Shown: positions 1 to 62,581, numbered from the stretch's first letter. The stretch is DNA of 64,000 nucleotides from Eshraghiella crossota (GCA_963624605.1 CAVFQD010000001.1:2441-66440), one strand, 5' to 3'. Made by a program: numbers and translations. Notes: a model not told the origin generated them from the letters alone.

Positions 1-193
1 CAACAAACAGCAGAGCACATATTACCGTGGCGGTGCTCAAAGAGTGTCGGTACAGTATCAAAAGCGTAACGCCGATACCCGCAACCGCAAAGCCGTAGCC
101 GAGAGATATGAAATAAACATATTTGTAAAACCCGATTGAGCAGACAAGCAGTGCAACAGCAAGTAAAATAAGATAATTCATAATAATCACCAT
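1..193 (-). CDS. integral membrane protein, N-terminal fragment (gene runs off the window start)
   Basis: The minus-strand frame is open from position 1. In-frame ATGs lie at 193 (MVIIMNYL...) and 181 (MNYLILLAVALLVCSIGFYKYVYFISLGYGFAVAGIGVTLLILY...). The sequence is strongly hydrophobic. It is absent from the ORF track because the window edge truncates it. Confidence 0.5.
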   Translation of the reverse strand, partial: MVIIMNYLILLAVALLVCSIGFYKYVYFISLGYGFAVAGIGVTLLILYRHSLSTATVICALLFV

Positions 194-282
194 AGCCTTT
201 CGTATTTTATTAAAAATCACCGGCTTAACCTGCGATGTCTGAACAGGTGTAACGGTGATTTCTGCTATCTTAAAATTATGCC
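185..282 (-). repeat. solo diverged copy (inverted orientation) of the 3' part of the 157-bp unit triplicated at 61942-62422
   Basis: The reverse complement reads GGCATAATTTTAAGATAGCAGAAATCACCGTTACACCTGTTCAGACATCGCAGGTTAAGCCGGTGATTTTTAATAAAATACGAAAGGCTATGGTGATT. It aligns by eye to GGCAAATTTTGAGATGGCAGAAATCACCATCACGCCTGTTCAGGCAACGCAGGTTAAATCGGTGATTTCCAATAAAAATTTGTTGCCTGAAAGGCTATGGTGATT, with one indel of about 8 nt. Confidence 0.65.
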
Positions 283-312
283 AAAGGAAAGCTTTGCCTT
301 CTTAGCCCATTT

Positions 313-341
313 ATTATACACCTCATTTACCTTTCTTTCAA
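313..341 (-). promoter_or_regulatory. sigma-A-type promoter for the membrane-protein gene and its leader
   Basis: On the minus strand: TTGAAA (341-336), a 17-nt spacer, then TATAAT (318-313). This predicts a 5' UTR of about 110-125 nt that contains the repeat copy. Confidence 0.5.
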
Positions 342-413
342 GGCGCAGAGGCTTATATTTTCTGTTATGGACTGTTCTTGATAAAGTGCATATTCACAGA
401 TGAATACGCACGA

Positions 414-851
414 TTATTTATGCGAATTGTCATATGCTTTGCGGATATCCTTTGGAAGCCCTTCCGGAATTAAAGCTTTTGCGTTGTCTTCACTGCCGTC
501 TTCCATGGCCTGCGTGTAATACCAGCACTTGAACTTGAGCATATCCAGCGTTTTATGCAACTGCCGGATTTCTGCTTCGACACGTTCTTTTTGTTTATGA
601 ATGAGCTCAAAACGATTGGAATAAGTGGCGGAACCTTCTGCGCACCACGCCATAAAAAGTTTGATGTCTTTGATTTCAAGACCCGATTTTTTCAAACACT
701 CGATCACTCTGAGCGCTTCAATTTCATTGTCGCTGAATTTGCGAATGCCGGATTCTCGTGCAAGCTGTGGGAAAAGTCCCTGTTTATCGTAATATCGAAG
801 CGTAGAAATGGGCAAACCAAACATTTCCGATACCTGTCCTATTGTATACAT
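414..851 (-). CDS. MerR family transcriptional regulator
   Basis: N-terminal MYTIGQVSEMFGLPISTLRYYDKQGL is a typical MerR HTH, followed by a coiled-coil dimerisation helix. The gene is divergent from a putative target operon. Confidence 0.9.
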   Translation of the reverse strand: MYTIGQVSEMFGLPISTLRYYDKQGLFPQLARESGIRKFSDNEIEALRVIECLKKSGLEIKDIKLFMAWCAEGSATYSNRFELIHKQKERVEAEIRQLHKTLDMLKFKCWYYTQAMEDGSEDNAKALIPEGLPKDIRKAYDNSHK

Positions 852-883
852 ATGTTACCTCCGAAATTATTTTCAAAAATGTC

Positions 884-914
884 TTGACCTAAAGTTAGGT
901 TTATGGATTATTAT
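884..914 (+). promoter_or_regulatory. MerR-type promoter with 19-bp spacer and dyad operator
   Basis: TTGACC (884-889), a 19-nt spacer, then TATTAT (909-914). The perfect dyad ACCTAA-AG-TTAGGT (887-900) lies inside the spacer, which is the classical MerR architecture. Confidence 0.55.
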
Positions 915-969
915 AAGTATAGCACATGAAAAGGTGTTATTCAAGATGTGAGAATAAGGAGGAAATGTA

Positions 970-1404
970 ATGAAATTTGAAAACAAGGATGCTTTTGAGC
1001 AGCACAATATGTTCGGAACAGGAACAGCAAATACAGCATATGCCAAGTACTTTATCGGTGATTCATTCCTGAATCCGCTTACAGACCCGAAAGGCGGATT
1101 GTTTGCCGCCAATGTGACCTTTGCGCCGGGATGCCGCAACAACTGGCATATTCATCATGCAAAAAGCGGCGGCGGTCAGTTGCTTATCTGTACTGCCGGA
1201 GAGGGCTGGTATCAGGAGGAAGGAAAGGACGCCGTCAGTTTGCAGGAAGGAAGCGTTGTGATGATTCCTGCGGGTGTCAAGCACTGGCACGGAGCAAAGC
1301 AGGACAGCTGGTTTTCTCATATCGCAGTTGAAGTACCGGGCGAAGAGTGCGGTAACGAGTGGTGTGAACCGATAAGCGATGAGCAGTATAGGAAATTAAA
1401 ATAA
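970..1404 (+). CDS. cupin domain-containing protein
   Basis: 144 aa. Cupin-like motifs are present (NNWHIHHAKSGGGQLLICTAGEGWY ... IPAGVKHWHGA). Confidence 0.85.
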   Translation: MKFENKDAFEQHNMFGTGTANTAYAKYFIGDSFLNPLTDPKGGLFAANVTFAPGCRNNWHIHHAKSGGGQLLICTAGEGWYQEEGKDAVSLQEGSVVMIPAGVKHWHGAKQDSWFSHIAVEVPGEECGNEWCEPISDEQYRKLK

Positions 1405-1429
1405 AAAACGGAACGGAGGATGGATTATC

Positions 1430-1756
1430 ATGGCGAAAATAGTTCAAACAGCAGGAAGAGACGCACTTGGAGAGTTTGCTCCGGAGTTTGCACATTTCAA
1501 TGATGACGTTCTTTTCGGAGAGAACTGGAACAATGAGGATATTGACCTAAAAACACGAAGCATCATTACAGTGGTTGCGTTGACGGCACAGGGAATCACA
1601 GATTCTTCTTTGAAGTATCATCTTCAGAATGCGAAGAATCACGGCGTTACGAAGAAAGAAATCGCAGCCATCGTCACACATGTGGCGTTTTATGCAGGAT
1701 GGCCGAAGGCGTGGGCTGTGTTTAATCTCGCAAAAGAAGTATGGACGGAGGAATAA
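1430..1756 (+). CDS. carboxymuconolactone decarboxylase (AhpD-like) family protein
   Basis: 108 aa. The CMD-family signature region is LKTRSIITVVALTAQG...HLQNAKNHGVTKKEIAAIVTHVAFYAGWP. Confidence 0.85.
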   Translation: MAKIVQTAGRDALGEFAPEFAHFNDDVLFGENWNNEDIDLKTRSIITVVALTAQGITDSSLKYHLQNAKNHGVTKKEIAAIVTHVAFYAGWPKAWAVFNLAKEVWTEE

Positions 1757-1759
1757 GAT

Positions 1760-2623
1760 ATGTTTTGTGAAATAAAAAAACTTAGCAATGAGGTGGAAAT
1801 TCCGGTACTGGCTCTCGGTACATGGCTTGTGGATGATAATAAGGTGACACAGGCTGTAAAAGCGGCTGTGCAGATAGGATACCGTCATATAGACACGGCG
1901 CAGGCTTATGGAAATGAGCGTGGTGTGGGCGAAGGAATCCGAACCTGCGGTGTGCCGAGAGAGCAGATTTTTGTTACATCAAAGGTTGCCGCAGAACATA
2001 AGACTTATGAGGCGGCAGCGGCAAGCATTGACAAGACTCTTGCCAATATGGGACTTGATTATATTGATATGATGATTATTCACAGCCCGCAACCATGGGA
2101 TAAGGTAAATCAGAGCGAGGATCGCTATGTGGAAGGCAACCGTGCGGCATGGAGAGCGCTTGAGGATGCGTACAAGGCAGGAAAGCTTCGTGCCATCGGT
2201 GTATCCAATTTCCTACAAGAGGATATTGAAAGCCTGTGGGAAACGGCAGAAATTAAGCCTATGGTGAATCAGGTGCTTTGCCATATTTCCAATTCGCCTT
2301 TGGAATTGATTGATTATTGCCGGAAGAAGGGCATCGTGACGGAGGCATATTCTCCGGTCGCCCACGGTGAGGCACTTAAAAATAAGGCAATCGCAGATAT
2401 GGCTGAAAAGTACGGCGTTACAATTTCGCAGCTGTGTATACGTTTTGATATTCAGCTTGGAATGATTGTTCTGCCAAAGGCAGCAAATCCGGAGCATATG
2501 AAGGAAAATGCGTCTGTTGATTTTGTAATTTCAGATGAGGACATGGAAGCTCTAAAGCATCTGGAAAGGATCAAGGACTATGGCAAACATAGCTTCTTTC
2601 CTGTGTTCGGAGGTAAATTATAA
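1760..2623 (+). CDS. aldo/keto reductase
   Basis: 287 aa. AKR motifs are present: LGTW, GYRHIDTAQAYGNE, IGVSNF. Confidence 0.9.
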   Translation: MFCEIKKLSNEVEIPVLALGTWLVDDNKVTQAVKAAVQIGYRHIDTAQAYGNERGVGEGIRTCGVPREQIFVTSKVAAEHKTYEAAAASIDKTLANMGLDYIDMMIIHSPQPWDKVNQSEDRYVEGNRAAWRALEDAYKAGKLRAIGVSNFLQEDIESLWETAEIKPMVNQVLCHISNSPLELIDYCRKKGIVTEAYSPVAHGEALKNKAIADMAEKYGVTISQLCIRFDIQLGMIVLPKAANPEHMKENASVDFVISDEDMEALKHLERIKDYGKHSFFPVFGGKL

Positions 2624-2821
2624 ACGAAATTTACAAAGCTTGGGAATACCGATATTATAATTTCGAAGTTATGTGTAGGCTGTATGAGTTTTGAATATAC
2701 CGTGTTCAGTGAAACACTGCAAAAATCGCAAAGATGTTGCAAGAAGAAGTCAGTAGTGATATCATCAGTATGAATACGGTGAAATAAACACTCGCAAAGC
2801 TATGAAAGGATATGAGAAATT

Positions 2822-24892: not shown

Positions 24893-25163
24893 AGGTTGTT
24901 ATATCATAAATTATTTGTGCGACAGCACAAGCGGAACGAAGTGACGGCGGCGAGAGCCGCAATTTAGCCATTCAACGTTCTCCGAAACGGTCAAAATCTA
25001 TGATTTTGCAAGCGTTTCGTGAGGTTGTTATATCATAAATTATTTGTGCGACAGCACAAGCGGAACGAAGTGACGGCGGCGAGAGCCGCAATTTAGCCAT
25101 TCAACGTTCTCCGAAACGGTCAAAATCTATGATTTTGCAAGCGTTTCGTGAGGTTGTTATATT
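24893..25163. repeat. 129-bp non-coding tandem direct repeat, 2 full copies plus a 13-nt third start
   Basis: AGGTTGTTATAT... recurs at 24893, 25022 and 25151, giving a period of 129. The copies are identical on manual comparison. Stop codons occur in all six frames of the unit. It contains the nested hairpin CGAAACG-gt-CAAAATC-tat-GATTTTG-caag-CGTTTCG. Confidence 0.9.
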
Positions 25164-25211
25164 ATATAAAATCAGTGGAATATAAGGCTGTATTTTCGAT
25201 AATAATACAAA

Positions 25212-61942: not shown

Positions 61943-62422
61943 AGGAGAATAGCGTGAAAAATCACGCTATTCATAATTATAGTGCCCTCAAAATTCGCCT
62001 GCGGCAAAATTTTGAGCCGGCAGAAATCACCATCACGCCTGTTCAGGCAACGCAGGTTAAATCGGTGATTTCCAATAAAAATTTGTTGCCTGAAAGGCTA
62101 TGGTGATTAGCGTGAAAAATCACGCTAATCATAATTATAGTGCCCTCAAAATTTGCGATTGGCAAATTTTGAGATGGCAGAAATCACCATCACGCCTGTT
62201 CAGGCAACGCAGGTTAAATCGGTGATTTCCAATAAAAATTTGTTGCCTGAAAGGCTATGGTGATTAGCGTGAAAAATCACGCTAATCATAATTATAGTGC
62301 CCTCAAAATTTGCGATTGGCAAATTTTGAGATGGCAGAAATCACCATCACGCCTGTTCAGGCAACGCAGGTTAAATCGGTGATTTCCAATAAAAATTTGT
62401 TGCCTGAAAGGCTATGGTGATT
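61942..62422 (+). repeat. three head-to-tail copies of a 157/158-bp hairpin-dense non-coding unit
   Basis: AGCGTGAAAAATCACGCT recurs at 61951, 62109 and 62266. I found no differences between copies 2 and 3. Copy 1 differs by a compensatory pair in hairpin 1, a few changes in hairpin 2 and 1 extra nt. See findings. Confidence 0.9.
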
Positions 62423-62581
62423 TTTATGTTTGAACTTTCCGAAGATTTAAGAGTAATATCAGCGTTTACCAAAACTATAAATATATTAACGGCAGTTAAA
62501 ACGGCAATGACGGTTGGGATAATAGTCTACTGCGTTTTTACGGGCTTCAAGGGAGTAAGCCTTGTAAAAAACGCTAAATAA
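62414..62581 (+). CDS. candidate small membrane protein (51-55 aa, not in ORF track)
   Basis: ATG at 62414 (MVIFMFEL...) or 62426 (MFELSEDLRVISAFTKTINILTAVKTAMTVGIIVYCVFTGFKGVSLVKNAK). One predicted TM helix. A strong terminator follows. Confidence 0.4.
   Translation: MVIFMFELSEDLRVISAFTKTINILTAVKTAMTVGIIVYCVFTGFKGVSLVKNAK

Follow-up and report, generated by a model that had tools for sequence, protein, structure and literature searches.

The window analysed here, a stretch of 64,000 nucleotides of Eshraghiella crossota DNA (GCA_963624605.1 CAVFQD010000001.1:2441-66440), carries near its beginning a diverged, inverted solo copy of a 157-bp unit that is repeated in tandem towards the other end. 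The solo copy (187-296, minus strand) is best explained, with a probability of roughly 0.7, as a degenerating member of an interspersed, tandem-prone repeat family of about 157 nt that brings its own, masked Shine-Dalgarno sequence (SD). The family itself is multicopy in Candidatus (Ca.) Fimenecus-like gut Clostridia. The initial annotation of the window had seen here a leader of membrane-protein genes conserved at two loci, and this is abandoned, as the copies number dozens per genome and the genes behind them are mostly of the cytoplasmic housekeeping kind. The family is previously undescribed, no description of it having been found in the literature searched.

The solo copy and its family at translation starts

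A blastn comparison of array unit 62107-62263 with the window gave a minus-strand match at 284-187 (E=2.6e-21) with 80.2% identity over 106 columns, gaps counted, and by nhmmer the unit positions 41-156 were aligned to 296-188 of the same strand (E=9.2e-15), so that the proposed inverted and diverged relative of the unit was borne out, with the similarity reaching 296 and not 282. The earlier estimate of about 85-90% identity over some 80 nt with one indel of about 8 nt agrees with a hand count from GCAGAAATCACC to GGTGA, in which 67 of the 79 ungapped columns are identical (85%) and a single 8-nt gap takes out most of the GTTGCCTGAA arm. Both strands of the helix P1 are kept, as had been read, GAAATCACC at 262-254 and GGTGATTT at 221-214, together with the CCTG/CAGG pairing of the inner hairpin P2, which is flanked by a G.U pair in the array units and by A-U in the solo copy; the P2 loop, TTCAGACATCG, differs by two mutations from the family consensus TTCAGGCAACG. 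The terminal string is identical at the two loci, at a length of 17 nt (GAAAGGCTATGGTGATT) instead of the 18 first given, the preceding base being C in the solo copy and T in the array. A second in-frame ATG is found at both places (ATGGTGATTATTATG in the solo copy, ATGGTGATTTTTATG at 62414), and both downstream open reading frames (ORFs) are hydrophobic, one coding for a DUF1295 protein and the other for a 51-aa protein without a Pfam match. The near-consensus promoter described at 341-313 (TTGAAA-17-TATAAT) has 11 of the 12 consensus matches. Within the 64-kb window no further copies exist beyond the array and the solo copy.

The genomes, one per species, were scanned with the pattern GAAATCACC-N6-CCTGTTCAG, which returned 79 loci, 52 of them with the element, from nine metagenome-assembled genomes (MAGs) of uncultured gut Clostridia, including MGYG-HGUT-04027, two Ca. 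Fimenecus sp. and one 'Ruminococcus sp.'. In these 52 loci 72 copies were delimited by nhmmer, mostly of full length and with consistent boundaries, and MGYG-HGUT-04027, which is about 95% identical to the window, has at least 30 copies by the strict pattern. A scan of metagenomes with a different, internal 19-mer gave at least 120 loci, with at least 123 further copies of consistent ends among the matches listed. The copies are about 90% identical, within as well as between genomes, and GAAAGGCTATGGTGA is unchanged in 91 of 129 unique family copies. The element stands at a contig end in about 25 of the 52 genome loci, and many pairs are spaced by 154-161 nt, which indicates that the repeat forms arrays and interrupts the assembly of short reads. 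No Rfam family matched the whole window at the gathering score, and the two loci, searched by E-value, produced chance snoRNA/miRNA matches only (E>0.09). The plasmid and phage collections contained no match to the element; the only match to CGCAGGTTAANNCGGTGATTT on a viral contig (L080 1582-1602) lies inside a phage terminase large-subunit gene and was rejected as chance.

At the 3' junction, GGCTATGGTGA is followed after 2-9 nt by the start codon of a real gene in all 48 of the 48 terminal copies from genomes, and among the metagenome matches listed an ORF start follows 105 of the 113 terminal copies, with a spacer of 5 nt in 94 of these 105; three of the eight exceptions open short ORFs, and the other five are one broken-off locus in several samples. 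The tie of the element's 3' end to a start codon, drawn at first from two loci and now checked in further copies and the genes behind them, is thus general, and the condition that was to refute it, further copies placed without regard to start codons, is decidedly contradicted. The downstream genes, about 80 in number, include leuC/D, pyrE, purN, hisB, argJ, argR, tyrS, tpiA, cmk, nusB, trx, galE, HPr and ppa; a type I toxin leader, or an association with membrane proteins, was ruled out because most of them code for cytoplasmic enzymes. GGTGA(U) is complementary to AUCACC of the 3' tail of 16S rRNA, and with the usual 5-nt spacer the terminal GGTGA is at the canonical distance from the start. 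The second in-frame ATG proves to be a feature of the family: in about 79-93% of copies, namely those whose spacer measures 2 or 5 nt, the ATG inside CTATGGTGA shares the reading frame of the true start, which fits selection against out-of-frame initiation.

The sole recurrent copy away from a start codon (L160 6313-6463; also L097, L165, L178 and L184) has the 3' end GGCTAAAGTTA in place of GGCTATGGTGA and is found behind a TTGACA promoter accompanied by repeated operator-like motifs of the AATTG type, before an apparently broken glutathione-peroxidase gene. A stand-alone small RNA gene was considered for this copy and rejected, given the missing SD end and the broken glutathione-peroxidase-like gene that follows.

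At the 5' junction, GGAG, GAGG or AGGA occurs within the last 12 nt in 52 of 70 independent flanks, as against 6.6% of random 12-mers. The native SD motif ends 1-4 nt 5' of the element, whose last preceding bases vary (GGAGA, GGAGGT, GGAGGGT, GGAAT, GGCGC), and in the copies examined the element lies in the sense strand at gene 5' ends. In two loci (L075 ~95-110; L034 ~2630-2650, at a pyrB-like gene) the first bases of the element, A-TAG, provide the gene upstream with its stop codon (...GGC GCA TAG), so that the element is able to overlap the end of a preceding cistron.

The consensus begins with the hairpin HP1, (A/T)TAG(C/T)GTGA-AAA(A)-TCAC(G/A)CTA(A/T), followed by an AT-rich linker, the hairpin HP2, CCCTCAAAATTTGCC-TTT-GGCAAAATTTTGAG, and the long hairpin HP3, GGCAGAAATCACCATCACGCCTGTTCAGGCAAC-loop-GTTGCCTGAAAGGCTATGGTGA, with a decoy GGTGATT within the loop and a 3' arm that ends in GGTGA. 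A promoter-like motif, GTGAAA-16..18-TATA(A/T)T, is present in the 5' third of 62 of the 129 unique copies and has 9 of 12 consensus matches in the array units of the window. Between HP1 and HP2, one copy (L037 ~2389-2510, upstream of cmk) has an 85-nt insertion with its own GC-rich hairpin, and the copies in L011, L051 and L085 are without HP1; it seems to be at the HP1/HP2 junction that cargo or deletion can be tolerated.

Table 1. Features of the window that bear on the repeat family (SD, Shine-Dalgarno sequence; coordinates are counted from the first letter of the window)
Feature	Position	Strand	Basis
Decayed solo copy of the ~157-nt repeat (unit positions ~41-157)	187..296	-	blastn, nhmmer, alignment, comparison with L211, L212 and L077
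GAAATCACC, putative internal anti-SD; forms the 5' strand of P1 as well as, where the copy is intact, that of the base of the long SD-masking hairpin	254..262	-	sequence; invariant across 45 copies
GGTGATTT, putative internal decoy SD; 3' strand of P1	214..221	-	sequence; pairing used in the predicted fold of the solo leader
Inner hairpin P2, CCTG (247-244)...CAGG (232-229)	229..247	-	sequence, alignment
3' terminus GAAAGGCTATGGTGA; GGTGA (191-187) as element-borne SD	187..201	-	exact in the solo copy and every array unit
Extra upstream in-frame ATG	193-191	-	sequence
Spacer TTATT (186-182) and start codon ATG (181-179) of the downstream gene	179..186	-	start of the orthologue called at this ATG
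DUF1295 / steroid-reductase-like membrane protein gene, 5' part, running off the window	1..181	-	263 aa in L211
Sigma-70-like promoter TTGAAA-17-TATAAT	313..341	-	11/12 consensus matches
MerR-family regulator gene, upstream, same strand as the solo copy, outside the element	414..851	-	Pfam
Three intact 157-bp units in perfect register (61950-62106, 62107-62263, 62264-62420)	61950..62420	+	TRF
51-aa hydrophobic ORF, served by the last GGTGA of the array	62426..62581	+	sequence; no Pfam match

Predicted folding and masking of the element-borne SD

HP1, which is absent from the solo copy, is the only helix backed by covariation: of the copies, 29 have AU and 15 UA at its pair 1-22, and at its pair 5-18 there are 25 with UA and 10 with CG. 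P1/P2 and the long hairpin are each 98-99% paired but invariant, and covariation cannot separate them; the P2-P1 junction (TTAAATC) varies freely. In the predicted folds both the P1 helix and the alternative helix named in the initial annotation are present in intact copies. The intact unit folds at -68.9 kcal/mol (z = -8.8). The nascent transcript, before the 3' arm is made, would fold as HP1, HP2 and P1/P2 (-44.2 kcal/mol), and the full RNA would adopt the masking hairpin (-65.5 kcal/mol, vs -53.8 with P1 forced), the masking hairpin alone accounting for about -35 kcal/mol. The computed probability that the terminal SD is unpaired has a median of 0.005 over 33 intact copies, as compared with 0.29-0.70 for the native SDs at empty sites and 0.22 for the solo copy, whose minimum free energy fold is P1, with the SD partly open. 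The geometry of a switch is, by this modelling, real in the intact copies.

A pair of changes at one locus, found with one gene in 13 samples (MNKYDKNSLKAEEF...; L103, L106, L111 and 10 more), bears on the masking helix. The anti-SD AAATCACC has become AAATCATC (AAUCAUC), and the terminal SD has changed from ATGGTGA to ATGATGA, with the decoy GGTGATT unchanged, so that this compensatory pair (C to U with G to A) keeps the masking helix and weakens the SD to GAUGA. The double change favours the pairing of the anti-SD with the terminal SD.

A mechanism may be outlined from these features as follows. An intact element stands between the native SD and the start codon, and its GGTGA takes over as the SD at the native spacing; by bringing its own ribosome-binding site (RBS) the element could occupy the translation starts of essential genes without being lethal. 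The internal AAATCACC would mask the new SD in the mRNA at equilibrium, and the decoy GGTGATT, transcribed about 40 nt earlier, would capture the anti-SD first via P1 or, alternatively, would act as a ribosome standby site in the hairpin loop. By decoy capture or standby binding, translation would remain possible.

Gain, loss and decay of copies

At pyrE, tyrS, argR, trx, nadK and a cupin gene, some genomes have the element and others an empty orthologous site, and two of these six filled/empty pairs occur within one species. At pyrE, within the same species, the flanks are 100% identical, and the alleles differ only in the element and the spacer. The cleanest pair, empty GGAGA|TAATT-ATG vs filled GGAGA|element|TGATT-ATG, is a plain addition after the SD. 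The filled/empty comparisons reveal no target-site duplication, with at most an ambiguous 2-nt TA at tyrS, and in a reading of the consensus no terminal inverted repeats are seen, the 5' end TAGTGTGAAAATCAC... being unrelated to the reverse complement of the 3' end TCACCATAGCCTTTC.... Copies are thus numerous and dispersed, and orthologous sites are polymorphic for their presence, as expected of a mobile repeat.

The orthologous elements are 0.90-0.96 identical, and the third codon positions of the neighbouring genes 0.67-0.70. Clade-specific indels (a CA insertion, GGTGATTATT) are common to the paralogues of one clade and absent in the orthologues of the other clade. The array of the window is located between spoVAD and the 51-aa ORF, with the native SD AAGGAGA directly 5' of it and the spacer TTTTT before the ATG at 62426; in different metagenome samples (L201-L204) it has 1, 2, 3 or 4 units with an identical 51-aa protein downstream, and many contigs end inside it, as at a variable-number locus. 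Taken together, these comparisons and the identity of about 90% point to homogenisation or continuing spread atop a strong sequence constraint. The family, judged by these comparisons, behaves as repeat DNA that is gained and lost, and it is probably a tolerated repeat that is mobile.

Where two units meet (e.g., window 62101-62133), HP1 grows to a 12-bp stem, TGATTAGCGTGA-AAAA-TCACGCTAATCA, because the terminal TGA of the preceding unit pairs with the TCA after HP1. At solo insertions, GA of the native GGAGA is able to form two of the extended HP1 pairs, and the extended pairing may be relevant to the recognition of targets or junctions.

In the solo copy of the window HP1 is missing, as are HP2's 5' half and, of the upper masking helix, the 3' arm, whose partner arm has two changes. 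The strain L211 (GCA_963620115.1) is identical to the window at this copy, and the sister strain L212 has the same deletion with the partner arm still of the consensus sequence, which indicates that the decay is in progress. In MGYG-HGUT-04027 the same DUF1295 gene stands behind only CTGAAAGGCTATGGTGATT, the last 20 nt of the element, and another TTGAAA-17-TATAAT promoter; from this remainder it would follow that the RBS-bearing end is what selection keeps. The copy of the window is, on these alignments, a relic, which appears to serve as the promoter-proximal 5' untranslated region and RBS of the DUF1295 gene. The position of its promoter corresponds to that at which about half of the intact elements have the weaker motif GTGAAA-16..18-TATA(A/T)T, and the promoter may have descended from the 5' third of the element, the homology being weak. 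The GC skew suggests that the solo copy precedes a lagging-strand gene.

In the neighbourhood of the solo copy (window 296-2814, compared with L077 3834-3940) the strain of the window has about 2.5 kb extra relative to MGYG-HGUT-04027, a segment with a MerR gene, a cupin gene, a CMD-family gene and an aldo-keto reductase gene, and one endpoint of this indel lies inside the element. Elsewhere in the window (24893-25166), between a ylmH-like gene and the pyruvate kinase gene, 129 bp are perfectly duplicated in tandem (2.1 copies, 99-100% identical); this duplication has no relation to the 157-bp family and occurs in none of the fetched loci.

Alternative explanations, known systems and significance

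Several observations weigh against the reading of the family as a tolerated mobile repeat with its own masked SD. Mobility is deduced from the presence/absence patterns alone, the searches having turned up neither a transposase nor an autonomous partner and the sequences showing neither a terminal inverted repeat nor a clear target duplication. The native spacer is not always kept between filled and empty alleles (ACTAAA vs TTATATAAA at pyrE, 5 nt vs 2 nt at argR), so that the insertion may have been imprecise or driven by recombination. Across species the 3' 100 nt hardly vary, a constancy that is needless for a purely selfish element and hints at a sequence-specific partner or function. Among the stem mismatches of the sense strand, G.U does not exceed A.C, and selection at the RNA level is therefore not told apart from that at the DNA level. 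Finally, essential genes stand behind an SD that is predicted to be almost wholly masked, so that either the equilibrium fold misleads or some factor opens the SD.

The alternative that fares best, itself unlikely, is a true regulatory leader, riboswitch-like or responsive to a protein or to the ribosome, in which P1/P2 would be a sensor that frees the SD and the long hairpin the OFF state, the genes forming a translational regulon with the repeat behaviour secondary. Such a leader would account for the three-way layout of anti-SD, decoy and SD with mutually exclusive helices, for some 70 nt that are extremely conserved across species though the neighbouring synonymous sites are saturated, for the one compensatory change that weakens the SD but preserves its pairing with the anti-SD, and for the largely biosynthetic and housekeeping nature of the genes. 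However, there is no Rfam family to which the element could be assigned, P1 is invariant and so offers no covariation, the P2-P1 junction varies, and the alternative helix accounts for the positions conserved though unpaired, which leaves little for a ligand pocket. The copies, moreover, are about 90% identical, unlike the members of a riboswitch regulon, and the differences between close strains in the presence of the element at essential genes, as well as the arrays of 1-4 units, are hard to reconcile with a tuned regulator.

A somewhat less probable alternative is a non-autonomous element of the IS200/IS605 type (PATE), moved as single-stranded DNA by TnpA in trans, with HP1 as the left-end hairpin, the 3' 100 nt as the right end, perhaps an omega-RNA-like TnpB scaffold guided by the start of the downstream gene, and the SD-like pentamer on the 5' side as the target. 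The lack of terminal inverted repeats and target duplication is in its favour, and so are the strand-specific insertion directly 3' of GGAGA-like sequence, the hairpins at both ends, the cargo-like indels between HP1 and HP2, such as the 85-nt insert in L037, and the invariant 3' part, which fits a protein-binding scaffold; the resemblance of the terminal GGTGA to the target pentamer would also account for the head-to-tail arrays. However, the 5' flank, SD-like in 52 of 70, appears not to be one fixed tetra- or pentamer, HP1 begins at the first base and leaves no room for a guide-sequence linker as in IS608, and the right end has no hairpin similar to HP1. No tnpA was detected by tblastn over about 0.6 Mb with an IS200 TnpA query, and neither a transposase gene (tnpA/tnpB) nor an autonomous copy was found in about 1.4 Mb of fetched loci. 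The listings of partial copies and of lone HP1 hairpins gave no lone left or right end beside an ORF. Rfam holds family-specific omega-RNA motifs, which would have been among the models searched, and there was no Rfam match at all.

That the repeat encodes a small protein, with the similarity due to coding constraint, is very improbable. In array unit 1 an SD precedes a GTG that opens an ORF of 50 codons, whose stop is the TGA within GGTGA, and an ORF of about 50 codons starting with GTG occurs in a few other copies; across 49 copies, however, the internal ORF stops after 1-51 codons in different frames because the homopolymer lengths vary, only 1-2 of the 49 end at the element end, and array units 2 and 3 are frameshifted relative to the ORF of unit 1. 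The element is, by its reading frames, non-coding. In about half of the terminal copies this upstream ORF has at most 9 codons and stops before HP2, and its translation was rejected as a general mechanism of unfolding or coupling. An integron attC site was also rejected on reading the sequences, the junction being without the GTTRRRY core and the flanking genes being of the housekeeping kind. An ordinary local duplication, or chance similarity of two loci without wider meaning, was conceivable as long as only the two loci of the 64-kb window were in view, and is refuted for practical purposes by the blastn E value given above and by about 200 further copies in at least 9 MAGs and many metagenomes.

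Beyond the tolerated repeat, a bolder reading, which is rather doubtful, would make of the family a self-propagating 'translation-initiation cassette' that swaps in its own SD and places 50-100 housekeeping genes under a common anti-SD/decoy-SD/SD switch, read by a trans factor or by co-transcriptional folding.

Among the described systems, the closest analogues appear to be the interspersed repetitive units of mycobacteria (MIRUs) and then REP2 of Neisseria, with which the niche is common, and the sequence and the device are not. MIRUs form variable-number tandem arrays. The likeness consists in short sense-strand repeats at translation starts, at about 40-50 loci per genome in the case of MIRUs, and in variable tandem arrays; the 157-nt family differs in that an internal ORF is not conserved and a new SD is supplied instead, in the lack of any sequence similarity, in the other host phylum, and in having neither the tetranucleotide direct repeats nor the imperfect terminal inverted repeats reported for MIRUs. 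MIRUs are described as mobile, inserting at start codons with the downstream expression preserved and with an internal ORF coupled to the downstream gene by a -4 overlap (PMC12548453; PMC3184786), and they are used for genotyping (PMC3184786). REP2 of Neisseria (the contact-regulated element) and IR-A/IR-B of Borrelia are 120-150 bp long and present in a few dozen copies; they contain internal stem-loops, lack terminal inverted repeats and have an RBS directly upstream of ORFs (PMC3184786). The present family likewise has no terminal inverted repeats, contains internal stem-loops, bears an RBS and stands directly before ORFs, and a promoter-like motif (GTGAAA-16..18-TATA(A/T)T) is found in about half of its copies. 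However, REP2 is described as bringing a promoter, an RBS and the ATG, and as marking a co-regulated set of virulence genes, whereas the 157-nt family, unrelated in sequence, is inserted 3' of an existing SD, masks its own SD by an anti-SD, forms tandem arrays and is found at housekeeping genes.

With PATEs the family has in common the lack of target duplication and terminal inverted repeats, the hairpin-rich ends, the oriented insertion beside a short motif and the head-to-tail stacking; it differs by a target motif that appears not to be fixed, a hairpin geometry unlike that of IS608, and the lack of TnpA/TnpB in the sampled DNA. As in translational riboswitches and RNA thermometers, an anti-SD pairs with the SD or with an upstream competitor in two exclusive folds, but no conserved ligand pocket is apparent and no Rfam family matches, the copy number and identity are those of a repeat and not of a regulon, and the masking hairpin is far too stable for a thermometer. 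Classical MITEs differ by their terminal inverted repeats and target duplication of fixed length, and the RAYT-associated REP/BIME sequences are GC-rich palindromes of 21-65 bp, mostly at gene 3' ends and in either orientation, whereas the 157-nt element is AT-rich and lies in the sense orientation at gene 5' ends.

The family breaks the short-read assemblies of a common human-gut genus, its variable-number tandem loci could serve for strain typing, and the calling of start codons is confused because of the in-frame ATG 12 nt upstream of the real start. Its biology would amount to a route by which repeat DNA enters the gap between the SD and the start codon of essential genes (tyrS, tpiA, pyrE) via a replacement RBS, a Firmicute counterpart of MIRUs and REP2 on another principle, namely SD replacement with built-in masking and not ORF coupling. 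If the masking/decoy layout is functional, it would represent a natural modular translational switch on dozens of genes; and if the cassette proposal is true, a selfish repeat would double as a genome-wide layer of translational control.

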